A stretch of 52,571 nucleotides of DNA from an uncultured Verrucomicrobiota bacterium (GCA_903847335.1 CAINDI010000113.1:1-52571); one strand, 5' to 3'; counted from the first letter of the stretch, positions 26,278 to 52,571 are shown. A program made the numbers and translations. The notes: generated from the letters alone by a model not told the origin.

Positions 26278-26812
26278 TGCGCTGGTCGTTCAGCCAGTAA
26301 AAGCCGCCGATGACAATTCCGTGGGTGATTTTGCCGGTGCGAATCAAATCCGGGATTTCCGCGAGCGGCACCAGTCGAACGATGATGTCTTCGGCGTGAT
26401 CGAGTTTTAATTCCGCAACCCGCCGGCAGCCGGTGGCGAGAACGTAATACTGCCGGTTGTTTTGGATAGCCGGGTTCGGATTCACCGTACTGAGTAATTC
26501 GATTTTGTCCGGTGCGTAACCGGTTTCTTCGAGTAGTTCGCGCCGGGCACTTGCTTCCGGTGACTCACCAGCATCCATTAATCCGCCGGGCGTTTCGAGT
26601 TCGACAGTGCGCGTGCCGTGTCGCCATTGCTCTACCATCACGACTTGGTTGTCGGGAGTGAGCGGAATAATGTTCACCCAGTTCGGCTGTTCCAACCGGT
26701 ACATGTCGTGGGGTTGGCCGGTGCGCGGATTGACAGTCACATCGTGATACACCTGAAAGATGCGACAGTCGAGAAGCTGCTGGGAACTTTCAATTTTCCA
26801 AGGCCGAATCAC
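26258..26812 (-). CDS. NUDIX hydrolase (ADP-ribose pyrophosphatase-like)
   Basis: Nudix box GGLMDAGESPEASARRELLEETGY; QWRHG; NP motif. Confidence 0.88.
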   Translation of the reverse strand: MIRPWKIESSQQLLDCRIFQVYHDVTVNPRTGQPHDMYRLEQPNWVNIIPLTPDNQVVMVEQWRHGTRTVELETPGGLMDAGESPEASARRELLEETGYAPDKIELLSTVNPNPAIQNNRQYYVLATGCRRVAELKLDHAEDIIVRLVPLAEIPDLIRTGKITHGIVIGGFYWLNDQRTTGGAR

Positions 26813-27216
26813 TTGGCGGTAACTTGCTCTAATTTTTTAAGAAACTCCGCCGCCGGTAAGTAACCACTGATTTGCGTGACGAGTTTTCCGTCAGCACCGA
26901 CAAATCCGATGAAGGGAAAACCGCGCACGCCAAATTGTTGCGCCAGTTTGGCTCCGGCGTCGCCCTTTTCAGGATTAACCTTTACCGAAATGAAATCTTT
27001 GGCGAGCTTGGCTTGCACATCTTTATCGCTGTAGGTGTCGCGGTCGAGGCGTTTGCACCAACCGCACCAGTCGGTATAAATATCCACCATCACGATTTTC
27101 TTTTCTTTCTTCGCCTTTTCCAAAGCGCTGTCGTAGCTCTTCTGCCAATCCACTTCCGCTGCCCACGCGCCAACGGCGAACAAACAAACAGTCATGCTAA
27201 GAATAATCTTTTTCAT
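26809..27216 (-). CDS. Exported thioredoxin-fold protein
   Basis: Signal peptide, WCGWC active site, GFP cis-Pro loop. Confidence 0.85.
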   Translation of the reverse strand: MKKIILSMTVCLFAVGAWAAEVDWQKSYDSALEKAKKEKKIVMVDIYTDWCGWCKRLDRDTYSDKDVQAKLAKDFISVKVNPEKGDAGAKLAQQFGVRGFPFIGFVGADGKLVTQISGYLPAAEFLKKLEQVTAK

Positions 27217-27224
27217 TCTGGCTC

Positions 27225-28886
27225 CTATTTTACCGGCGGTTCAATCCACCGGCCATGTTCTTTGATTAGTGCGATGAGTTCATCCACCGCTTGTTCTTCC
27301 GGAATGTGTTGCTTGACCTGCATCTTACCGACCCACAACGAAATCTTCCCCGGTGCCGTGCCGACGTAACCGAAATGCGCGTCCGCCATCTCGCCGGGAC
27401 CATTTACGATACACCCCATAATCGCAATCTTCACGCCTTTCAAGTGCGCCGTCCGCGCCTTAATCTGCGCTGTCACCGTCTGTAAATCAAATAGCGTTCG
27501 TCCGCAGCTCGGACAAGCCACATAATCCGCCTTGAACGACCGGCAACCCGCCGCCTGCAAAATATTATACGCCAGCGTCACCGGCCCGGCCACTTGCACC
27601 GCATCGCCGATACCATCGCACAACAGCGCGCCGATGTTCGTACTCGTGGTTAAAAGATTGCCGGATTCGTCCCGCAATAAAATCGGCCAATTCGGTGCGC
27701 GTACCGCTAATAACCGATACGCCGGAATCATTTCCAAGCCGGTACCGGCGCTGACCGTCAGTAACCGTGCCGGCATTCCGTGAAAATCCGGCGGCACCAA
27801 CGGATTCACTTCCAAAATCTCCGGTGCCTTCAGTGAAAATTCTGCCGCCAAGTCACCGGTGCCTTGTGTTGCGCAAACGCGCACCGGATTGCCGTCGCCG
27901 ATGACGACACCATTAATGTTCACGATCTGCGTGACGCGGCGTTGGTAGTTAAATGGGTCACGGGTTTCAATGACCGACAGCAGCGCCGGAGCTTTACCGG
28001 CCGGTAAATTATATTTGCTCACGAGTTCCCGGCAGACGGGAACTTCATGCAGACTGTCCTCCGTCAAGGAGACGCGGACGGTATCGCCCAGACCATCTTC
28101 GAGCAACGCGCCGATGCCGATGGCGGATTTAATCCGGCCATCTTCGCCGCCGCCGGCTTCGGTGACGCCGAGATGCAGCGGGTAATTCCAATCCGCGCCT
28201 TCCGCGTTGAGCCGAGCCACGAGCAACCGGTAGGTTTCGATCATCACTTTCACGCTGCTCGATTTCATCGAGAGAATGATTTCGTGATAATTGTGCTGCC
28301 GGCAAATCCGAACAAATTCCAACGCACTTTCTACCATGCCGAGCGGCGTGTCGCCATACCGGTTCATAATCCGGTCGGAGAGCGAACCGTGATTCGTGCC
28401 GATGCGCATGGCGCGACCGAGTTGTTTGCACTTGAGTACGAGTGGCGTGAATGCTTTCTCTAGTCGTTCCAATTCGTCGGCGTATTGGTCGTCGCTGTAT
28501 TCACGCGTCGCAAATTTCTTCCGGTCAGCGTAGTTGCCGGGATTGATCCGAACTTTCTCCACCCATTCCGCGGCTTCCATCGCCGCAATGGGAACGAAAT
28601 GAATATCGGCGACGATGGGTGTCTTGAAACCATGGTTGCGAAGTGCGCTGACGATATTCTTCAAATTCTTCGCGTCATTGATGCTTGGCGCGGTGATCCG
28701 CAAAATTTCGCAACCGGCCTCGATAATTGGAATCGCCTCTTTGACGCAGGCGTCCGTGTTCATCGTGTCGGAAATCAACATCGTCTGGACACGAATCGGA
28801 TTATTTCCGCCAACTCCGACGTGGCCAACTTTGACTTCGCGGGTGAGACGCCGTTGCCGGTGAAATGGATTTGTGCAGTAGTTCAT
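27225..28886 (-). CDS. ispG: HMBPP synthase IspG, long form
   Basis: VADIHF, RINPGN, RIGTNHGSLS, YPLHLGVTEAG, GDTVRVSLT, CPSCGRTLFD, MGCIVNGPGE. Confidence 0.96.
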   Translation of the reverse strand: MNYCTNPFHRQRRLTREVKVGHVGVGGNNPIRVQTMLISDTMNTDACVKEAIPIIEAGCEILRITAPSINDAKNLKNIVSALRNHGFKTPIVADIHFVPIAAMEAAEWVEKVRINPGNYADRKKFATREYSDDQYADELERLEKAFTPLVLKCKQLGRAMRIGTNHGSLSDRIMNRYGDTPLGMVESALEFVRICRQHNYHEIILSMKSSSVKVMIETYRLLVARLNAEGADWNYPLHLGVTEAGGGEDGRIKSAIGIGALLEDGLGDTVRVSLTEDSLHEVPVCRELVSKYNLPAGKAPALLSVIETRDPFNYQRRVTQIVNINGVVIGDGNPVRVCATQGTGDLAAEFSLKAPEILEVNPLVPPDFHGMPARLLTVSAGTGLEMIPAYRLLAVRAPNWPILLRDESGNLLTTSTNIGALLCDGIGDAVQVAGPVTLAYNILQAAGCRSFKADYVACPSCGRTLFDLQTVTAQIKARTAHLKGVKIAIMGCIVNGPGEMADAHFGYVGTAPGKISLWVGKMQVKQHIPEEQAVDELIALIKEHGRWIEPPVK

Positions 28887-30271
28887 GGTGTAGTAGTTGC
28901 CGCCGGTTCATTCGTGCTAGTCACGCTGAGCGCCGGTGACCGGTGTGGTAGAAATTTTTGGACATCATTAAACGTGATGTAGAGCATAAACCCAATCAGC
29001 ACCGCCGCAAATCCGGTCGTCACGACGTGGACGAAACGCGCATTCACCGGCTTGCGGATGACGGCTTCAATGAGCGCAAAAACAATGTGACCGCCATCGA
29101 GGACCGGCAGGGGAAGTAGATTAAAAATCGCGAGATTGATGTTGAGCACCACCGCCAGCCACAAACCCCGTCGCATTCCGCCGCTGGCAAATTCGCCCCA
29201 CCAACCGCCGAGAATTCCCACCGGGCCGGCAAAACTTTTGACGGTGACGCCGGTTTGTTTGTGATGCGCAACGGCATAAACGCTGTTGCCGAGCATGTCG
29301 AGGACGTCGCTGAATTGTTCCCACGGTTTTGGACCGGGTTTAACGATTTGCTCGGTAAGTTCGACGCCAATCCGCGCGACTTTTTCCTCCGGTGCCGCAA
29401 CCGGCGTGACAGTTAGCTCGACGACTTTTCCATCGCGAAGCAGTTTGACATGCGTCAGTTTGTCGGCGCGTTTGCTGATTAATTCAATCAACTGCGCCCG
29501 ACTGAAGACCGGAACGCTTTCGATGGCGAGAAATTCGTCTCGTGACTGGATACCAGCGCGGTCAGCCGGTGAACCCGGTCGAGTGCGCACCGCCACCGGT
29601 CGGCCCGGCGGATAAAGGCCGGTCATTTTGATACCAAATTCTTTTTCGTAGGTGGTTTCAAGATTGCATTCGATTCGCTCATCGCCGCGCATGGCGACGA
29701 CATTGACATTCGGCTCCAAACTCAGCGCGACACCGGTGGCGATATCCGTCCATTTGCTGACTTCTTTGCCGTTGATTTGAATGATCCGGTCACCGGCGCG
29801 CAAGCCGGCCAATTCTTCGTGGCTGTTCGGCTCAATCCAGCCGATGACGGTTGAGTGATTCGCCGCCGGCATTCCAATTCGCCAGAGCACCGTGGCAATT
29901 ACAAATGCCAGCACCAAATTCATGAACGGCCCGGCAACCGAGACGAGAATTTTGTCGAGTGGCCGCGCTGCTGGTATTTCGGTGGTGGGTTTTTCGGTCT
30001 TACCTTCAAACGCTTCCATCGGTCCCATTTGCGGCAACATGACGTAGCCACCAAACGGTAACCACGCCACGCCATACTCGATACCAGAGCTTTTCCAACT
30101 GAAAATTCGCGGGCCGAAACCGATGAAAAATCGTTCGACAATCATCCGTCGCCGGCGCGCCATCAGATAATGGCCAAACTCATGGATGAAGATCGTTAAC
30201 CCAAAGAAAAAGATCACCAGTAGCGCTGGGTAAACATAAAGTCGCACCAAATCGAAAAATTTAAACAGCAT
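28883..30271 (-). CDS. rseP: RseP site-2 intramembrane protease with two PDZ domains
   Basis: HEFGH, PFGGYV, AGPFMN, NLLPLPVLDGG. Start moved to ATG 30271. Confidence 0.93.
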   Translation of the reverse strand: MLFKFFDLVRLYVYPALLVIFFFGLTIFIHEFGHYLMARRRRMIVERFFIGFGPRIFSWKSSGIEYGVAWLPFGGYVMLPQMGPMEAFEGKTEKPTTEIPAARPLDKILVSVAGPFMNLVLAFVIATVLWRIGMPAANHSTVIGWIEPNSHEELAGLRAGDRIIQINGKEVSKWTDIATGVALSLEPNVNVVAMRGDERIECNLETTYEKEFGIKMTGLYPPGRPVAVRTRPGSPADRAGIQSRDEFLAIESVPVFSRAQLIELISKRADKLTHVKLLRDGKVVELTVTPVAAPEEKVARIGVELTEQIVKPGPKPWEQFSDVLDMLGNSVYAVAHHKQTGVTVKSFAGPVGILGGWWGEFASGGMRRGLWLAVVLNINLAIFNLLPLPVLDGGHIVFALIEAVIRKPVNARFVHVVTTGFAAVLIGFMLYITFNDVQKFLPHRSPALSVTSTNEPAATTTP

Positions 30272-40850: not shown

Positions 40851-42683
40851 TTACTTCGCAATCAGTCCAGTTTGCAGCGCCGCCAGAATACCGGCGGCAC
40901 CACCGGGCGACATGAGATATAGCCCAGCCCAGCCTTCTTGCTGAACTCGCTGCACCTGCTCCACGGCAATTTCAAGGCCAACCTTTGCCTGATCGGTCGG
41001 ATTGGATTTAGTGGCTAACCGCTGGAGGATTTTATCCGGCAAAACCACACCGGGCACTTGCGCCACGCGCTGGGCTTGTTCCAAACTCGTCAAAATCATA
41101 ACGCCAATCAAAATCGAATGTTTTGTCCGCAACGATTCCAGCGCCGCCAGCGGTTCCGCGCGAAACGCCGGTTGTGTCATCACATAATCCGCACCGTGAT
41201 CGAGCTTCTGCCGGAGGCGGTCGAGTTCACGTTTGCCATCGACGGCTTCCGGTTCAAAGCCCGCACCAATCGTAAAATGAGTACGCGGGTCAGCCTGTTT
41301 ACCGAGTGGCGCGCCGCCAAAGTCCACACCGGCGTTCAGGCACGAGTTTGTCAATCGCACCAGTGCCACCGAATCTAAATCAAACACTGCCGTCGAGCGC
41401 GGATACGTCGGCGACATCTTCGGCGGGTCGCCGGTGATGAAAAGAACATTATGAATCCGGTTCGCGTGAAATCCAATCAGTCGGCTCTGAATTCCCATCA
41501 GATTCAAATCGCGGCCGGTAAAGTGCGGAATCAACTCCAACCGGTCGCCAATCTGATTCCGAACCAGATGAATGAAATCTCCCGGCGGCATCAACGGAAT
41601 TCCGCGCGAGCCATCGGTGAAATCCACCGCATCCGCCAGACCGCTGTCGGCAAGTTGGCGGATGAAATCAATCTTACCGGCGACCAGTTTCTCATCCGTT
41701 CCGCGCGGCGGCAAAATTTCAACGCTGACGACAAACTTTCCGGCTTTCAATTTTTGAGAGAACCGGCCGTTTGCTGATTTTTCGACATCACCGGCCGGCG
41801 GACGAGTTGATTTTATTTCAACGCCACCGGTGACGCCGGCTTGTCGCGACCGGAGATAATTGTGCATTTCGCGAAGATGTGGCGGGTGCATTTCGCAGCA
41901 ACCACCAATCAATCGCACGCCGCGATCCATCAAGCTCCGCGCCAACCGGCCCATATATTCCGGATTCACTGAACTCATGAACCGGTTGCCGATTCGCTGA
42001 AATCCACCGGCGTTCGGCATCACTACTAGAGGCAACGGCGCATCCGGTACCGCGTCTACAAATGCGCTCGCATCCCACGGCGCACAGCAATTCACGCCCG
42101 CGACCGCTGCGCCGATTTCCGCCATCCGCTGGACAAACGCCGCCGGTAAAATTTCTGGGCTGAATGTCATTTCCGCGATAATCGGCGGTGCGCCCGGTAT
42201 CGACCGGATGAGCGCGATGAGTAATTCCAGTTGTGGTTGCGAGCTAAAAGTTTCCAGCAACAACGCATCAGCACCGGCGGCAATCAAATTTTCGATTTGT
42301 TCCCGGTAACATTCCGCGATGGCGGTGGGTGTGAGTAAAACTCCGGCGGCCGGGCCGATGGAAGCGAGCGTGAAGACCGGTTCCGTCCCGGCGGTGCGCG
42401 CGAGATTCACGCCGGCGCGATTTAATTCTGCCACGCGGTGTTCCATTCCAAACTGCCGCAACTGATGTCGGTTCGCGCCAAAGGTATTAGTTTTGAGACA
42501 GCGTGCGCCGGCGGCGAGATAATCCCGGTGGACGCGACGGATGAGGTCCGGTTGATCGGTGTTGAACGCTTCGTAGACGTGATTCGTCTCGGACAATCGT
42601 CCGGTGAGTTCAAACAAATACGAACCCATCGCGCCGTCAGTGAGCAACGGTTGCGTTTTTAACGTGGTTAAAAAATCCGCCAT
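40851..42683 (-). CDS. yitJ: Bifunctional homocysteine S-methyltransferase / methylenetetrahydrofolate reductase (YitJ type)
   Basis: DGAMG, TNTFGAN, LETF, GVNC, PNAG, IGGCC (Zn ligands). C-terminal MTHFR domain: VEILPPRG, HFTGRD, ITGDPP, GADYVMTQP. Confidence 0.88.
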   Translation of the reverse strand: MADFLTTLKTQPLLTDGAMGSYLFELTGRLSETNHVYEAFNTDQPDLIRRVHRDYLAAGARCLKTNTFGANRHQLRQFGMEHRVAELNRAGVNLARTAGTEPVFTLASIGPAAGVLLTPTAIAECYREQIENLIAAGADALLLETFSSQPQLELLIALIRSIPGAPPIIAEMTFSPEILPAAFVQRMAEIGAAVAGVNCCAPWDASAFVDAVPDAPLPLVVMPNAGGFQRIGNRFMSSVNPEYMGRLARSLMDRGVRLIGGCCEMHPPHLREMHNYLRSRQAGVTGGVEIKSTRPPAGDVEKSANGRFSQKLKAGKFVVSVEILPPRGTDEKLVAGKIDFIRQLADSGLADAVDFTDGSRGIPLMPPGDFIHLVRNQIGDRLELIPHFTGRDLNLMGIQSRLIGFHANRIHNVLFITGDPPKMSPTYPRSTAVFDLDSVALVRLTNSCLNAGVDFGGAPLGKQADPRTHFTIGAGFEPEAVDGKRELDRLRQKLDHGADYVMTQPAFRAEPLAALESLRTKHSILIGVMILTSLEQAQRVAQVPGVVLPDKILQRLATKSNPTDQAKVGLEIAVEQVQRVQQEGWAGLYLMSPGGAAGILAALQTGLIAK

Positions 42684-42743: not shown

Positions 42744-43658
42744 TTAGTTTTGTGTGAGTTGATTCGCGTCGAACACAATCGGGAAGTTTTCACCTTCGAC
42801 CACGGCGCCTTTCGGGATCGGCGGCGTGCCCGGCATCAGCGGCTTGTCGGTGTCAGAACGCACATCCGGTCGGATGAAGTTTAGCACCACTCCGCGGCGT
42901 GGGTTGGGCGAAGTATTTGGATATGAGCCGTGCAAAGTGAGGCAATGATGAAACGATGCCTCACCAGCCTTGAGCATCATCGGCACCGGTTTGAATTGCG
43001 CGAGTTGTTCGGGAGACAGCACCTGCTTGATGGCTTCCATATCTTCCATGCCACCGGTGAGCTTGACGGTCGGCAACAGATTCCAGCGGTGCGAACCGGG
43101 AACGACATGGACGCAGCCGTTCTCTAAAGTGGTGTCATCCAGCGCAACGAAACAGGTGATGTGTCCCACCGGTACCGTGCGTGTCCAATACGAATAATCC
43201 TGATGCCATGCCACCACGCCACCGTGCCGGGCGGGTTTGTAGAAAAGCTGGTCGTGCCAGAACCGCACCCGGTTCGTGCCGAGCAATTGACTGAGCGGAA
43301 CCGTCATCTCCGCATTGAACAGCAGGTCGTGAAACGCGTCGTCCACAAACCAAGCACCTTGAAAATAAATCATCTGCTGATTCTTGGTCGCGCCACCGGC
43401 GGCTGCGGTCAATCCAATCAGTTCGCTCCGGCGCGGAAAATCGTCGGCCACCATCTGTTCCAACCGGTCGCGCAAACATTGGAGTTGGCGTTCCTCCAAA
43501 ACTCGAATGCCTTTGAGATAACCATTGGTCTCGTAGAACCGCACTTGTTCCGGCGAGAGGGTGTATTTCGGAATCTCCTCCGACCGAGTAGCTGCCGTGA
43601 ATAATTGGCCCGCTGGCCGATGAATTTTTCGATAATCAATCAGATTGGTCGTGCCCAT
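42744..43658 (-). CDS. Phytanoyl-CoA dioxygenase family (Fe(II)/2-oxoglutarate) enzyme
   Basis: NGYL, DQLFYKP, WHQD, ALDD..ENGC..VPGSH, H..TLHGS..N...RR. Confidence 0.88.
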   Translation of the reverse strand: MGTTNLIDYRKIHRPAGQLFTAATRSEEIPKYTLSPEQVRFYETNGYLKGIRVLEERQLQCLRDRLEQMVADDFPRRSELIGLTAAAGGATKNQQMIYFQGAWFVDDAFHDLLFNAEMTVPLSQLLGTNRVRFWHDQLFYKPARHGGVVAWHQDYSYWTRTVPVGHITCFVALDDTTLENGCVHVVPGSHRWNLLPTVKLTGGMEDMEAIKQVLSPEQLAQFKPVPMMLKAGEASFHHCLTLHGSYPNTSPNPRRGVVLNFIRPDVRSDTDKPLMPGTPPIPKGAVVEGENFPIVFDANQLTQN

Positions 43659-43690: not shown

Positions 43691-44887
43691 TCAAGGTGAG
43701 CCAGGTTCATATTTTTTAGAATTGCTTAACAACAATGAGAATAAAAATCCCAACGCCAATAAGCCGGCGCCGATTCCAAATGCGTCGCTGGCGGCTTGCG
43801 TTCCGAAGTGGTCTTTGAGGAATGCCACCATTTGCGGGCCGACAATTCCGCCGGCCGACCACGCCGTTAGGATACAGCCGTAAAGCACCGGCATCCGCAC
43901 CGGGCCAAACGTGTTCAGCACAAACGCAGGCATCACGCCGAAGCCGCCTCCGTAACAAAGCAGCACATAACAAATCAGCGCGCCGAACAACCAAGGGTTA
44001 CCGGTGAAGATGAGCGCGACAAACGCGATGACTTGCGTGGCCAGCATCACACGGAACGTGGCGAGTTGACCGAGCCGGTCCGACAGACCGCCCCAGAACA
44101 GCCGGCCCAAACCATTGAATAATGAGCTAACCGCAATCAACGTCGCGCCGGCCATCGCCGGATTTGGGCCACGCCACAAATCCTGCAACAGCGGCGATTG
44201 GAAACTGATGATGGCGATTCCGGCGACAATGTTGCAAAAGAACACCAGCCACATCAAACCAAACTGTCGCGACCAGACCGGCGCGATCCCCGCGAGGTTG
44301 ACGGAAGCGACCGGTGTCCCCGGTGGATTCCGCAGGCCAGCCGCAGCAAACAAACTGATCGTACCGACAATCAAGCCGATACCGGCAAAAACCAGCGGTA
44401 GTTGATGTTGGCAAGCGGCGTCGAGTGCCGGTGCGATGACTTTGCTCATCAGCAGTGCGCCCAAGCCGAAACCCATGACCACCATGCCGGTGACTAAACC
44501 TTTTTTATCGGGAAACCATTTCGCCGCAGTCGCCACCGGCGTGACATAGCCAAGTCCTAAGCCGATTCCGCCAACAACTCCGTAGCCGAGCCACAACAGC
44601 GGCAGCGATTTCAAATGCAACGCCAGCGCCGCGAGCAGATAGCCAGCGCCGTACAGCAAGCTACCGGTGACCGCGAGTTTGCGTGGGCCGAATTTCGGAA
44701 GCAAGACGCCGCCGACCGCCGCCGCTACGCCAAGAAAACCGATGGCGAGACTGAACGCCCACGCAACTTGCGTGTTGCTCCAACCGTAACCGGTGACGAG
44801 CGGTTTCTGGAAATAACTCCAAGCGTACACCGCGCCGAGGCACAGTTGTAGCAATGTGCCGGCACCGGCAATGAGCCAGCGCTTCAT
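43691..44887 (-). CDS. MFS transporter, oxalate/formate antiporter (OFA) family
   Basis: GAVYAWS, GLGYVTPVATAAKWFPDKKGLVTG..VMGFG, NGLGRLFWGGLSDRLG, YGGGFG. ATG 44887 overlaps the fhs stop (TGATG). Confidence 0.88.
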   Translation of the reverse strand: MKRWLIAGAGTLLQLCLGAVYAWSYFQKPLVTGYGWSNTQVAWAFSLAIGFLGVAAAVGGVLLPKFGPRKLAVTGSLLYGAGYLLAALALHLKSLPLLWLGYGVVGGIGLGLGYVTPVATAAKWFPDKKGLVTGMVVMGFGLGALLMSKVIAPALDAACQHQLPLVFAGIGLIVGTISLFAAAGLRNPPGTPVASVNLAGIAPVWSRQFGLMWLVFFCNIVAGIAIISFQSPLLQDLWRGPNPAMAGATLIAVSSLFNGLGRLFWGGLSDRLGQLATFRVMLATQVIAFVALIFTGNPWLFGALICYVLLCYGGGFGVMPAFVLNTFGPVRMPVLYGCILTAWSAGGIVGPQMVAFLKDHFGTQAASDAFGIGAGLLALGFLFSLLLSNSKKYEPGSP

Positions 44888-46563
44888 CAGAACAAGCCGA
44901 CGATTTCGCCCGCTTCGTTGATGTCGATGATTTCCGCCGACGGAATTTTTGGCAAGCCCGGCATCGTCATGATGTCGCCGGTCAAGACGACGACGAATCC
45001 GGCTCCGGCGGAAAGTTTCACGTCGCGAATCGGCACGTCGAAGTTTTTCGGACGGCCGAGCAAGGCCGGGTCGGTGGAAAGCGAATATTGCGTCTTCGCC
45101 ATGCACACCGGCAGATGCGCGTAGCCAGCGGCTTCGAAATCTTTGATTTTCTGACGGACTTTTACGTCGGCCATGATGTTGTCGGCGCCATAAATATTTT
45201 GCGCGATGGCGCGAATTTTATTCCAGAGACCCATCTCATCGGTGTAGAGGAACTGGAAATTATTGGAACGCGGTTGCTCCGCAAGTTCGACGACAGCTTT
45301 CGCCAGATTTTCCGCACCGGCACTGCCGCGCGCCCAGTGGTCGGCTTTGACGGCGCGAACGCCGAGAGTTTTGCAGTGGTTCTCAATGACGGCGACTTCC
45401 TCCGGTGTGTCAGCGGTGAAATGATTAATCGCAACCACCACCGGTAGGTTGTAGAGCCGAATATTTTCGATGTGTTTTTCGAGATTGGCGATGCCTTTTT
45501 CGACGGCGGACGGATTCGGTTTTCCGAGGTCAGCTTTCAGAACTCCGCCGTGCATTTTGAGCGCCCGAACAGTGGCGACGATGACAACGGCACTCGGTTG
45601 CAAGCCGGCCTTCCGGCACTTGATATCGAGGAATTTTTCTGCGCCGAGGTCGGCACCGAAGCCGGCTTCGGTCACAGCGTAATCGGCGAGCCGGAGACCT
45701 AATTTGGTAGCGAGGACGCTGTTGCAACCGTGCGCGATGTTGGCGAATGGTCCACCATGAACGAATGCCGGATTGCCTTCGAGCGTCTGGACGAGATTTG
45801 GTTTGAGCGCATCTTTCAACAAGACGGTCATTGCGCCGTGAGCTTTGAGGTCGGCAGCAGTGACGGGCTTTTTCTCGCGGGTGTAAGCGACGACAATTTT
45901 GCCGAGACGTTCCCGGAGTTCTTTGAGCGATTCGGAGAGACAGAAAATCGCCATGACTTCGGAGGCGACGGTGATGTCGTAGCCGGATTCGCGCGGGATG
46001 CCGTTGGCGTTGCCGCCGAGGCCGAGAACGATGTCGCGGAGAGCGCGGTCATTCATGTCCACGACGCGCCGCCAGACGATGCGATTCACGTCGATGCCGA
46101 GTTTATTGCCTTGCGTGAGATGGTTATCGAGGAGCGCGGCGAGTAAATTGTGCGCGGCACCGATGGCGTGAAAGTCACCGGTGAAGTGAAGATTGATGTC
46201 TTCCATCGGAATCACTTGCGCGTAACCACCACCGGCGGCGCCACCTTTGACGCCGAAACACGGACCGAGCGATGGTTCGCGTAGACAGATGACGGCGCGT
46301 TTGCCGATGCGGTTCAACGCATCGCCGAGACCGACGGTGCAGGTGGTTTTACCTTCACCGGCGGCAGTCGGATTGACAGCGGTGACAAGGATCAACTTGC
46401 CGGTCGGCGCGTTGTCGAGGCTATGGAAGTAATCGAGCGAGATTTTGGCTTTGTAATGGCCGTAATGCTCAAGGTCGGCATCGGGAATGCGGAGCTTCTT
46501 GGCAATCTCTCCGATGGGTTTGATTTTGGCAGCGCGCGCGATTTCAATATCGGACAGTGGCAT
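44887..46563 (-). CDS. fhs: Formate-tetrahydrofolate ligase
   Basis: [66 protein letters not shown]. Confidence 0.97.
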
Positions 46564-46578
46564 AATGAGATTTCCTTT

Positions 46579-47442
46579 TTAGGCGTAGAATTCTTGGACG
46601 CGCATGATGACGTCGAAACCTTCCAGCTTCAGACAATCGGTGAGGCATTGCAGCGCCGGAGCGTCGGTCGTAAGCATTTCGTATTTGCGTTTGACCGAAC
46701 CGATGACGTGATCCATTCCGAGCGGCATGGCCAGCGTGAGGAACGCGCTTTCGAGCGGGCCTTTCGTCGGTGAACCATCGGCGCGTTTCGGCGGCAGCAT
46801 GACGGTGAAATTGCTGAGACCCACTGACATGTGGACGCCCTTGAAGTTTGCGTCGTCGTGAATTAGGCGGATGGATTTCATCAACCGGAGAAACTGGTTT
46901 TCAGAATCAGCGCCAATCGGTGAGATGCCGGCGTCAATGATGCAATCGCTGACTGCGATGCTATGTTTCTTGGCTTCGGCAATCATCTGTTTTGCGGTCG
47001 CGTAGGTCTGGTTGGCGTCGTGATTTGGCTGGCCGGTGCCGTTTTCATTGCGCTCGGTGACGAGGAGAATCGGCCTGAATGCGATAATCTTTTTCAAGTC
47101 GAACATCTCTGGTCGCAACGGCGAAATGGAATTCAGTAACGGGATTTTGCCACCGGCGCGATTGAGGTCGTAGGCTTTGAGACCAGCTTCGGCCATGACT
47201 GGATCGGGTGTGTCGATGGAGAGCGGCTTCGCGGTGACGCTCTGAACTTGCCGGACCATTTCCGCGAGAAATTCCGGCGAACGCTTGCCGACGTTGACGT
47301 CGATGTAGGTTGCGCCGCCGGCGTCTTGCGACTTAGCCAGTTCTTTCAAGCCGGCGATGTCGTTGGCTTCGTAAAGTTTTTTGGTGGACGGAACGGAATC
47401 GTTGATGGATTCTCCGATGATACTGAGGCCGGGTAGTGACAT
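46579..47442 (-). CDS. Pterin-binding methyltetrahydrofolate:corrinoid methyltransferase (AcsE / MetH folate-domain-like)
   Basis: IIGESIN, GATYIDVNVG, PLSIDT, NSIS, IIDAG, VGLSNF. ATG 47442 lies 1 nt after the metF-metV stop. Confidence 0.8.
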   Translation of the reverse strand: MSLPGLSIIGESINDSVPSTKKLYEANDIAGLKELAKSQDAGGATYIDVNVGKRSPEFLAEMVRQVQSVTAKPLSIDTPDPVMAEAGLKAYDLNRAGGKIPLLNSISPLRPEMFDLKKIIAFRPILLVTERNENGTGQPNHDANQTYATAKQMIAEAKKHSIAVSDCIIDAGISPIGADSENQFLRLMKSIRLIHDDANFKGVHMSVGLSNFTVMLPPKRADGSPTKGPLESAFLTLAMPLGMDHVIGSVKRKYEMLTTDAPALQCLTDCLKLEGFDVIMRVQEFYA

Positions 47443-47443
47443 A

Positions 47444-49000
47444 TTATTTCTCCTTTTTTGCGTGATGATCGCGGTTGCGGTAAGTGTTCGCCCAAGCCGA
47501 AGTGCCTTCGAGGCTGGCATTGTAAAATACGGCCGGGCCATCGAGCATGTGTTCGGCTTCGCCGTAAGCTTTCAGTCGGTCGTAAGCGCGCGCCCAGAGA
47601 CAATCTTTGTCGTCGAGTTCGCACCGGCCTTCCGCCGAACCGCCGCACGGACCGTTGCGGCCGGTTTTGGAACAAGCTTTGCGCGGGCAAAGATACGCGG
47701 TGTCCGGTAGCGAGCAATCGCCGCAATCTTTGCAGCCGAATGCCATTTCTTTCGAGACGCGTTCGATGCTGTGCAATGCTCGAGACGCCAGATTATCGCC
47801 GTTTTTTTCGAGCTGAGTGTAAATTTTTTGCATCGCCGGATAAAATCCTTCGCCGGCGACGAAAAATTTCTCGTGAATTTTTCGCGTGAGCCGGTAACCC
47901 AGCGGCGCGGGATTTTCCAACGCCTTCCGGTACTCGCGATTCAATTGCGTGACGTCGCCGAGACCGGTGGCGGGGTCGGCTTCAAAAAGGTAAAATTCAT
48001 CCGGTTTCGAATACTGAATTTCTTTGGCAAATTCTTTCCAGTCGTTTTCGCCGTAGCTCTGCGCTAGCTCGATAATTTTGCCGAACGATTCCGCTTTACC
48101 GAGACCGCCGAGATAGCCACCGGCGAAGCCTAAGCCTTTGAACACGGCGAGTTGTTTCGCGGCGAGTTCGTTGAAAAAGCTCCGGCCTTTGTCGGGACCG
48201 GCGGCGTATTTCTCAATGAGCGCAAAAAGTTTATCGCTGACGACACAGCCGGGGATTTTGTTTTTGTTGAACAAACCGGCGACGGTTTTGTTGAGGACGT
48301 AGACATTGCCGATGACCGGCGCTTGGACTTGCGCCCATTGCATGAAAAGTTTGATTTCGTAAAACTTTCGCATGTCGTAGCCGAGTTGCGAAATTACCCA
48401 CTCGGCGCCGCAATGGATTTTGCGGGCGAGTTTGAAATATTGCGGCATCAATTCGCGTTCTTGGCGTTTGAATGGCGAAACGGCGCAGCCGGTAAAGAAT
48501 TTTGTCTGTGGAAATTTTTCGGTCTTACCGCCGGGACGCTGAACTTCGAGACCGTCGTTCATTGCTTTGAGCATGGCAATGAGGCTGACAGAATCTAAAT
48601 CAAAGACCGGTCGCGCTAAACCGCCGTAGCCGGTGATTGGATAATCACCGGTGAGGGCAAGCAAGTTATCAAAGCCTTCAAGTGCATACCGCCACGCGGC
48701 GGATTCAAGACCGTTTCGGTTCAGGTCTTTGCAAGTAAGATGAATCGCCACCGGGACTGATTGACCAGCCAGCATACCGGCAATCCAGTCGGGCGGAAGC
48801 ATTGGATTGCCGCCGGGGTTATCGGTAATGGAGAGCCAGCCGATGCGTGGGTCTTGGGCAAGCGCTTTGCCGAGATCGATGAGTTTGTGTTGTTCGCCGG
48901 GAGCCGGAATGCCGCGCGTGCTGACCAATTCCGCGCCGTACACGAAGCGTCCGCCGGTAATGGCGGCTCGAAAAGTCTCTCGATTACTAATTGGATCCAT
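47444..49000 (-). CDS. metF: Methylenetetrahydrofolate reductase MetF fused to a C-terminal MetV (Cys-rich) domain
   Basis: ITDNPGG, HLTCKDLNR, LTGDYP, FDLDSV, SQLGYD. C-terminal CKDCGDC...CPRKACSK..RNGPCGGS...C.....CLW (MetV/MTHFR_C). Confidence 0.85.
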   Translation of the reverse strand: MDPISNRETFRAAITGGRFVYGAELVSTRGIPAPGEQHKLIDLGKALAQDPRIGWLSITDNPGGNPMLPPDWIAGMLAGQSVPVAIHLTCKDLNRNGLESAAWRYALEGFDNLLALTGDYPITGYGGLARPVFDLDSVSLIAMLKAMNDGLEVQRPGGKTEKFPQTKFFTGCAVSPFKRQERELMPQYFKLARKIHCGAEWVISQLGYDMRKFYEIKLFMQWAQVQAPVIGNVYVLNKTVAGLFNKNKIPGCVVSDKLFALIEKYAAGPDKGRSFFNELAAKQLAVFKGLGFAGGYLGGLGKAESFGKIIELAQSYGENDWKEFAKEIQYSKPDEFYLFEADPATGLGDVTQLNREYRKALENPAPLGYRLTRKIHEKFFVAGEGFYPAMQKIYTQLEKNGDNLASRALHSIERVSKEMAFGCKDCGDCSLPDTAYLCPRKACSKTGRNGPCGGSAEGRCELDDKDCLWARAYDRLKAYGEAEHMLDGPAVFYNASLEGTSAWANTYRNRDHHAKKEK

Positions 49001-49250
49001 GTTGATTACTTATGTTTTGTTGACCCGCCGTATTGACGACAGGACACGCTGTAATGCTGTAAGTTTCGTGAAACACTAGGAAAATAAGGGTTATGCCTTA
49101 ATTTGACAATGCTCCTGACTCGCGAAAACATACCGGTTATTGACTGATGTGGCGCAGTTGTAAAAATCTGCAAACTATAAATTTTGTTCGTGCAAACTGC
49201 GGGGCAGACGCCTAAAGTTACGGCTCAATAACTTCAGGAGATTTAATTCT

Positions 49251-52410: not shown

Positions 52411-52440
52411 TTGACGGAGTCACAAAGTTACCGGTAGAGT
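52411..52440 (+). promoter_or_regulatory. Sigma70-type promoter driving the riboswitch leader
   Basis: TTGACG-N18-TAGAGT. Confidence 0.55.
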
Positions 52441-52449
52441 CCGCGCCAG

Positions 52450-52571
52450 TTCTTTAGGAAAATGCGTCGGCGCAGGGAATGCCGTGAGATTCGGCAACAG
52501 TGGCGCTGCTGTAACTGGATACGAAAGCCCAATTGCCATCCGAATGGAGAAGGCGGGCCGGTAGATTTGAA
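52450..52571 (+). ncRNA. Cobalamin riboswitch (truncated by the window edge)
   Basis: AGGGAA-TGCCGTGAGATTCGGCA (T-loop hairpin)-ACAG..GCTGCTGTAA...GCCAT...GAGAAGGC; order and spacing match the B12 element. Confidence 0.85.

Follow-up and report, generated by a model that had tools for sequence, protein, structure and literature searches.

A conserved MetF-MetV, methyltransferase and Fhs operon in Verrucomicrobiota as a candidate tetrahydrofolate/formate arm of corrinoid-dependent methyl transfer

A 52,571-nucleotide stretch of DNA from an uncultured Verrucomicrobiota bacterium (GCA_903847335.1 CAINDI010000113.1:1-52571; 'the window' denotes this whole stretch) raises the question of what role is played by four co-oriented open reading frames (ORFs) on its minus strand, at 43691-49000, which encode a MetF-MetV fusion, a pterin-binding methyltransferase, the formate-tetrahydrofolate ligase Fhs and a major facilitator superfamily (MFS) transporter. 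An original prediction, made from the window alone, had described these genes as a stand-alone module with an AcsE-like methyltransferase and a formate antiporter, and as a candidate for an undescribed system that might run in reverse, from corrinoid-bound methyl groups to formate. On present evidence we lean towards reading the four genes as the tetrahydrofolate (THF)/formate arm of a corrinoid-protein methyl-transfer hub, with a net conversion of methyl groups to formate and ATP, and export of the formate.

The first gene (47444-49000) encodes a chain of 518 residues that matches both the methylenetetrahydrofolate reductase (MTHFR) domain PF02219 (55.7 bits) and the MetV domain PF12225 (85.6 bits) above their cut-offs. 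It is followed by the pterin-binding methyltransferase gene (46579-47442; P0001, 287 residues; PF00809, 53.3 bits against a cut-off of 25.5), by fhs (44887-46563; 558 residues; PF01268, 905 bits) and by the gene for an MFS monocarboxylate transporter (43691-44887; P0002, 398 residues; PF07690, 99.7 bits). Fhs gives a full-length equivalog pass with NF010030 (924.5 bits against 652, covering residues 3-558), and a single copy was found in the genome by tblastn. The starts of the longest ORFs are overlong for two of the genes, and were corrected to M34 (pterin gene) and M74 (MFS gene). Read directly from the sequence, the three junctions are TAA-T-ATG, with 1 nt, between the MetF-MetV and pterin genes, TAA, 15 nt and ATG between the pterin gene and fhs, and a TGATG overlap between fhs and the MFS gene; these junctions and the coordinates agree with those first reported. 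An AAGGAG motif sits within the 3′ end of the MetF-MetV gene.

Is this arrangement peculiar to one contig? Species-representative genomes were scanned with the pterin protein, which gave 14 related loci, mostly in Verrucomicrobiota metagenome-assembled genomes (MAGs) together with one Phycisphaerae MAG; their neighboring genes were identified by tblastn using proteins from the window and from a second contig of the same genome, C69. Wherever the sequence reaches far enough, the pterin gene is flanked directly by MetFV on its upstream side (13 of 13 loci) and by Fhs on its downstream side (12 of 12). The gene order MetFV-pterin methyltransferase-Fhs is therefore not due to chance, and the conservation that the original prediction had proposed to look for holds for this core. 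The transporter is more variable: of the 11 loci that could be assessed, 5 have one after Fhs, an MFS homologue in four (L014, L018, L021 and L024) and an FNT/FocA-like channel in L011. ORFs without a Pfam match (260, 244 and 874 residues) fill the same slot in two further loci (L019:12782-14677; L023:5820-8444). An AraC homologue lies upstream of the module and divergent from it in 9 of 13 loci, and 6 of the 11 loci assessable on that side, like the window itself, have a homocysteine methyltransferase or YitJ gene downstream. Counting more distant loci too, YitJ homologues come after the module in L015, L021, L055 and L056. The first two enzymes also occur as natural fusions, namely P0214 (833 residues), whose pterin part shares 62% identity with the protein of the window, and an 855-residue open frame in genome G325 (C100:3547-4413).

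The MetF-MetV protein itself has 5341 homologues, mainly in Verrucomicrobia and Phycisphaerae MAGs, and eight Cys residues (C423, C426, C429, C438, C443, C452, C460 and C467) are invariant across 13 of them. With an MTHFR domain and PF12225 above the cut-off it has the make-up of the MetVF type, but as one fused chain, not two subunits.

The module as a whole is less widespread. At E <= 1e-40, 13 of the 301 genomes sampled across the phylum carry the pterin gene. Within the window's family it is present in 9 of the 18 other genomes, and 2 of 4 congeners have it; the set of pterin, MetFV and Fhs genes is an accessory module. The corrinoid activase RACo, by comparison, occurs in 113 of the same 301 genomes, including 11 of the 13 pterin-positive ones. 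This difference in spread suggests that the THF/formate arm is an addition to a more widespread corrinoid system.

What, then, does the pterin-binding protein do? Its PF00809 match spans residues 60-280 of the long ORF. It falls well short of the AcsE/MeTr models (115.3 against 259 for NF005719; 50.8 against 370 for NF040758), and the label 'AcsE-like' was over-specific. The best solved relatives are 4o0q/4o1e/4o1f (E 1.2e-15), followed by MeTr/AcsE structures (1.8e-12 to 1.6e-10) and the MetH folate domain (1e-5). The folate-site motifs align with those of 4o0q (IDTP/IDSP, LLNS/LINS, IDAG/IDPL and GLSN/GLSN); the catalytic roles presumed for the aligned residues are those described for MeTr, and 4o0q is presumably a component of a Desulfitobacterium O-demethylase. 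The pterin gene adjoins a corrinoid protein gene in 5 of 13 close loci (L013, L014, L018, L019 and L022) and in two distant ones (L057 and L059). We take the protein to be the methylcorrinoid:THF methyltransferase (MT2) that serves a corrinoid-protein system, and its dependence on a corrinoid protein appears very probable. In public records the gene is named 'dihydropteroate synthase' or 'methionine synthase I'. A search of a plasmid collection for CmuB-like relatives returned 16 records, all less than 30% identical and none annotated as CmuB; CmuB itself was not recovered, and the Paracoccus and Sinorhizobium replicons carry such pterin proteins at less than 30% identity.

The corrinoid partners of such an enzyme are absent from the module but present in the genome, so the module is not 'stand-alone': relatives place the same genes beside corrinoid partners, and here those partners are on C69. 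This contig carries RACo, a DUF1638 protein, an AraC regulator, a 244-residue corrinoid protein (PF02607 and PF02310), a second AraC, a PhyH protein, a UroD-like protein without a Pfam match and a 287-residue homocysteine methyltransferase. Both the stand-alone corrinoid protein and the RamA-like activator that the original prediction had suggested seeking are therefore found together. In comparisons with NCBIfam models, the corrinoid protein scores highest against corrinoid proteins that partner methyltransferases (198 bits to MtgC_2 against 136 to MetH, all below the cut-offs) and RACo is closest to the AcsV/RamA activases. Four relatives (L013, L014, L018 and L019) show the two halves contiguously, in the order RACo-DUF1638-AraC, then divergently corrinoid protein-MetFV-pterin methyltransferase-Fhs-(MFS)-homocysteine methyltransferase; in L022, AraC is divergent from corrinoid protein-MetFV-pterin methyltransferase.

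Candidate donor-side methyltransferases for this hub are abundant. The 2.35-Mb genome has 16 matches to the URO-D family, of which one is HemE-like (C135, 181 bits), and one MttB-superfamily gene; the UroD fold was among the methyltransferase types that the original prediction had proposed for a search. In relatives, a URO-D-family gene continues the cluster in L014 and L018, UroD-fold genes and a homocysteine methyltransferase lie within a few kilobases of the module in L055, and three URO-D matches follow it on the same strand in G329. Among 31 relatives, URO-D counts range from 0 to 31, and five or more matches were found in 12 of 13 pterin-positive but 5 of 18 pterin-negative genomes, which as kin are not independent of one another. 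The UroD paralogues match methylcobamide:coenzyme M methyltransferase (MtaA/CmuA) models weakly. PhyH paralogues elsewhere in the genome are paired with UroD-fold genes, and a repeated cassette, in which AraC is divergent from PhyH followed by a UroD-fold gene, occurs in at least five copies confirmed by Pfam or NCBIfam (C69:46620-49392, C121:357-4309, C160:23145-25950 and 26774-29642, and C172:310-3224). The MttB-superfamily gene (C77:9526-13423; L041) is of the non-pyrrolysine kind, scores 295.8 bits against 525 for the trimethylamine model and lies beside a GH4-like alpha-galactosidase and AraC; such pairing of a quaternary-amine-type methyltransferase with a glycosidase is unusual.

These gene types raise an obvious alternative, that the operon belongs to, or is left over from, a standard Wood-Ljungdahl methyl branch, acetogenic or acetyl-CoA-cleaving, since MetF-MetV, a MeTr-like protein and Fhs are all methyl-branch enzyme types. 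It is extremely improbable for this organism. No acetyl-CoA synthase (PF03598) was found in the contigs of the genome, which is rated 99.57% complete, and no formate dehydrogenase was found; the genome has only three B12-binding matches (the corrinoid protein, MetH and a 676-residue frame), and the pterin protein failed the AcsE model. As a candidate carbon monoxide dehydrogenase, the sole Prismane-family match was rejected, being a hydroxylamine reductase/HCP (577 bits against 44 to carbon monoxide dehydrogenase), and with it and the missing acetyl-CoA synthase the Wood-Ljungdahl reading was set aside. The original observation that the window lacks both enzymes appears to extend to the genome. 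Three observations had been named in advance as damaging to the original prediction, namely an acsABCD set elsewhere in the genome, a lack of corrinoid proteins and a neighborhood without conservation; none of them was made.

The remaining inventory bears on the fate of formate. FolD, one of the genes suggested for a search, is encoded elsewhere in the genome, as is serine hydroxymethyltransferase (SHMT). No molybdopterin-type formate dehydrogenase was found in the genome, its three molybdopterin matches being two NuoG-like proteins and one Qrc-like protein; no NAD-dependent formate dehydrogenase rose above the cut-off there (165.6 against 329), and pyruvate formate-lyase, MetE and an FNT channel were likewise not found among its contigs. 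Because neither formate dehydrogenase nor pyruvate formate-lyase is in this inventory, Fhs is the only formate-making or formate-using enzyme found in the genome, and the cell appears unable to oxidize formate further. FolD lies on a 1.8-kb contig (C103:226-1155) and has a 94%-identical partial copy (C114:21643-21999), and there are two high-scoring FolP genes (C71:4925-6127 and C150:498-1586); strain heterogeneity, or the assembly's contamination of 4.45%, could account for these duplications.

Whether the fourth gene fits a formate pathway depends on its likely substrate. The label 'formate antiporter' was too specific: the protein scores 305.2 against 320 for the SfMCT model NF049980, 190.2 against 374.85 for OFA (TIGR00890) and 135.3 against 335 for OxlT (TIGR04259), and its best score is thus to a lactate/monocarboxylate carrier, just short of that model's cut-off. 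The best PDB match is likewise SfMCT (6g9x/6hcl; E 4e-36), followed by OxlT (2.6e-22). In the alignment to OxlT (8hpj), the MFS protein keeps the shared Arg but has Trp in place of the Lys of 'FWAAKATAS', and 'antiporter' and 'oxalate' are therefore labels that the alignment does not support; in OxlT the Lys would be the second basic residue, used for a dicarboxylate. The main argument for formate comes from gene context, by analogy: in L011, from a genome of the same genus (G312), an FNT/FocA-like channel (L011:8068-8892) occupies the slot of the MFS gene, so that congeners hold either an MFS protein or an FNT channel there, and L063 has the order pterin methyltransferase-FNT-MetFV. Formate is for these reasons the likely cargo of the MFS protein. 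In L011 the PhyH and YitJ genes are missing after the channel, and the 3′ end of the operon looks recently swapped between congeners.

Beyond 43691 the co-oriented run continues, after a gap of 32 nt, with a gene for a PhyH-family Fe(II)/2-oxoglutarate dioxygenase (42744-43658, minus strand; 304 residues; PF05721, 124 bits) and, after a further 60 nt, with a gene for a YitJ-type bifunctional homocysteine S-methyltransferase/MTHFR (40851-42683, minus strand; 610 residues; NF006396, 457.3 against 453); the transcription unit probably runs on through both. A PhyH gene was not found among the 14 related loci. Upstream, the intergenic region between the operon and a divergent MqnA-like gene (49001-49250) is, by its position only, the presumed promoter region. 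Promoter-like and terminator matches around the operon are at shuffle level in pattern scans, and Rfam at the gathering score gave no family upstream of the operon, hence no S-adenosylmethionine (SAM) or other riboswitch there. The sole Rfam match at that score is a cobalamin riboswitch aptamer (RF00174, 38.3 bits) at 52420-52571 on the plus strand, far from the operon start and truncated at the contig end; the gene that it regulates lies beyond the window.

Taken together, these components suggest a route. RACo, as a RamA-type activase, and the DUF1638 protein would keep the stand-alone corrinoid protein of C69 active, while the many UroD-fold paralogues and the one MttB-family protein, each specific for its substrate, would methylate it. 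The pterin protein of the window would move the methyl group from methyl-Co(III) to THF, a reversible step; the MetF-MetV fusion would oxidize methyl-THF to methylene-THF, its Cys-rich domain handing electrons to an acceptor; FolD would yield 10-formyl-THF; Fhs would liberate formate and make ATP; and the MFS carrier would export the formate. Part of the methyl pool may pass to homocysteine, via the stand-alone homocysteine methyltransferase or the YitJ domain, and end in methionine.

The same parts can be read in the opposite direction, as an anabolic split methionine synthase comparable to the three-part MetH of Phaeobacter and Ruegeria: imported formate would be reduced to methyl-THF by Fhs, FolD and MetFV, the pterin protein would methylate the corrinoid protein, and the homocysteine methyltransferase or YitJ would form methionine. 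All parts are at hand: the window supplies the pterin gene, and C69 the corrinoid protein, homocysteine methyltransferase, RACo and DUF1638 protein. They are contiguous in the four relatives named above and correspond to the five-gene set of PMC5764234. A distant orthologue sits in a bare corrinoid protein-pterin methyltransferase-homocysteine methyltransferase cluster (L059), a homocysteine methyltransferase or YitJ gene ends many versions of the operon, no MetH activation domain was found in 4 of the 15 genomes that bear the module, and the MetVF enzymes of acetogens act reductively, with ferredoxin (PMC8760232, PMC8515935). We nevertheless regard this alternative as unlikely here. A split MetH serves as the methionine synthase of an organism without classical MetH or MetE, whereas this genome, in which MetE was not found, encodes a full MetH (TIGR02082, 1130.9 bits against 1010.85) with its own activation domain, a domain found in 11 of the 15 module-bearing genomes; together with SHMT this MetH makes an anabolic formate-to-methionine route redundant, which favors the methyl-to-formate direction. 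That direction is favored further because the invariant core is MetFV-pterin methyltransferase-Fhs and not the three methionine synthase modules (pterin methyltransferase, corrinoid protein and homocysteine methyltransferase), because the regulator is of the AraC type with neither a SAM nor a B12 riboswitch before the operon, because donor-side UroD-fold genes adjoin the module in relatives and their numbers track it, and because the genome shows neither an internal source of formate, no pyruvate formate-lyase having been found to supply it, nor a formate sink.

The abundance of UroD-fold genes permits a third arrangement, in which methyl-THF methylates the corrinoid protein and MtaA-like UroD-fold enzymes pass the methyl group to thiols or other acceptors, in biosynthesis or detoxification. 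The weak matches of the UroD paralogues to MtaA/CmuA models are in keeping with such a reverse supply, and roles that involve methyl-sulfur or methyl-selenide have been put forward for MtaA homologues of bacteria in a preprint (10.1101/2023.07.31.551370). Yet the at least 15 UroD paralogues, several with an AraC and PhyH partner of their own, look like a substrate-specific catabolic battery, and Fhs and the formate carrier would have no role beyond C1 supply, so that we consider this arrangement very unlikely.

Several observations weigh against the methyl-to-formate reading. All five of its steps are in principle reversible. The MetFV and YitJ genes form the only MTHFR-like locus found in the genome, and because both MTHFR-like genes lie in it the operon must also serve an anabolic supply of methyl-THF to MetH; the homocysteine methyltransferase or YitJ gene that closes many operon versions ties the module to methionine, and the reductive acetogen enzymes (PMC8760232, PMC8515935) argue in the same sense. 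A transporter of any kind follows Fhs in fewer than half of the assessable loci, and the MFS protein here scores best against a lactate carrier model while remaining below every curated cut-off. Among distant pterin orthologues (below about 62% identity), MetFV is adjacent in only 3 of 12 and Fhs in 1 of 12. The corrinoid protein and the UroD genes are on other contigs and are linked to the operon by homology to relatives, and in an assembly of 177 contigs with 4.45% contamination the absences of formate dehydrogenase, pyruvate formate-lyase and acetyl-CoA synthase mean 'not found', not proof. The original proposal, a corrinoid-fed methyl-to-formate route run in reverse, is borne out in part, in that it fits the UroD neighbors, the 16 URO-D matches, the AraC regulators and the full MetH; the net direction is only inferred, and we give it a modest preference.

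Another of the distant loci has a different character. In L057 (7362-12646; genome G088), the pterin gene lies in a row with genes for a Fer4 dicluster protein, a PaaE-like FAD/NAD oxidoreductase, a corrinoid protein and a BCCT transporter; this row resembles a betaine-type demethylation cluster and recalls the PaaE-like protein tied to cmu genes (PMC3621897).

A wider and more speculative picture can be drawn. Freshwater Verrucomicrobia, and through gene transfer some other members of the Planctomycetes-Verrucomicrobia-Chlamydiae (PVC) group, might practice a 'formate-yielding methylovory', in which AraC-controlled PhyH and UroD cassettes strip methyl groups, perhaps from sugar methyl ethers, onto one corrinoid protein, the operon converts them into formate and ATP, and the formate is excreted because the cell has no formate dehydrogenase; in that picture the fused MetF-MetV would oxidize methyl-THF with the help of a new redox partner. 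We offer this only tentatively. Were it correct, polysaccharide-degrading Verrucomicrobia would be an unrecognized source of formate for cross-feeding in lakes. The catabolic direction by itself would mean that abundant freshwater Verrucomicrobia draw energy from the methyl groups of algal or plant glycans, or of further methylated compounds, and that these groups also give rise to excreted formate; it would make the fused MetF-MetV a candidate methyl-THF-oxidizing enzyme outside the acetogens; should the anabolic reading hold, the operon would simply be one more split methionine synthase. A widely distributed gene set is now connected to a testable route.

How does the system compare with those already described? 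A literature search that left most subscription journals outside its reach found no paper on corrinoid demethylation in Verrucomicrobia, and none combining Verrucomicrobia, a UroD-type methyltransferase, cobalamin and polysaccharide. Even so, 'undescribed system' overstated the case, as routes of the same kind appear in PMC12478193, PMC3621897, PMC11868366 and PMC3160333. We rank as nearest the MtgBCDE-MetF2 system of Ruegeria pomeroyi with RamA and DUF1638, in which the synthesis of methionine and the demethylation of glycine betaine both require MtgC and MtgD and the MetF2 adjoining mtgD is proposed to oxidize methyl-THF (PMC12478193), and which shares its parts with the split MetH defined in Phaeobacter inhibens with RamA-like and DUF1638 partners (PMC5764234). 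Common to these and to the present genome are a stand-alone corrinoid protein, a bidirectional pterin methyltransferase, a homocysteine methyltransferase, a RamA/RACo activase and DUF1638, as well as a further MetF paralogue that adjoins the pterin gene and is proposed for THF-linked C1 oxidation. By contrast, the donor-side enzymes here are mainly of the UroD fold, not the MttB-family MtgB, and MetF is joined to a MetV domain that carries eight conserved Cys; the operon includes fhs and a formate carrier, and the genome encodes a classical MetH as well, with no formate dehydrogenase found in it.

The cmu pathway of Methylobacterium extorquens CM4 (CmuA, CmuB, MetF2, FolD and PurU; PMC3621897) is similar in logic, leading from a UroD-like methyltransferase with a corrinoid domain via a methylcobalamin:THF methyltransferase, a dedicated MetF and FolD to the cleavage of formyl-THF to formate. 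It differs in that its last step uses the hydrolase PurU and not the ATP-conserving Fhs; here, moreover, the corrinoid protein is separate and a transporter is in the operon. CdmBCA and the three-component O-demethylases of anaerobic Bacillota also combine a UroD-superfamily MT1, a corrinoid protein and a pterin-binding MT2 (PMC13222342), and their MT2 structures 4o0q/4o1e/4o1f are the best solved match of the window protein; 4O1E, bound to methyl-THF, and 4O1F, bound to THF, served in the same paper as templates for CdmA, the component that transfers methyl groups to THF. Those hosts send methyl-THF into the Wood-Ljungdahl pathway, whereas the present organism, in whose genome neither acetyl-CoA synthase nor carbon monoxide dehydrogenase was found, would stop at formate.

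Oxidation of THF-bound methyl groups by a dedicated reverse MTHFR, followed by FolD and Fhs or LigH to give reductant and ATP, is known from ligM-metF-ligH of Sphingobium lignivorans SYK-6, whose MTHFR (S6MTHFR) only oxidizes methyl-THF (PMC11868366), and from SAR11, which has metF, folD, fhs and formate dehydrogenase (PMC3160333). In these systems demethylation falls to GcvT-type enzymes that depend on THF and use no corrinoid; S6MTHFR, unlike the fused protein here, is of the simple MetF type and lacks a MetV domain; and SAR11 proceeds to CO2 via formate dehydrogenase, none of which was found in this genome. The acetogen MetVF enzymes share the MTHFR domain and the Cys-rich MetV module PF12225 with the window protein (PMC8760232, PMC8515935), which is instead a fused chain of 518 residues in a non-acetogenic host with O2-dependent dioxygenases. 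Relative to all these analogues, what differs here is the fusion of MetF with MetV, the presence of fhs and a formate carrier in the operon, the UroD-fold donors with PhyH, the coexistence with MetH in a genome where no formate dehydrogenase was found, and the occurrence in PVC hosts.

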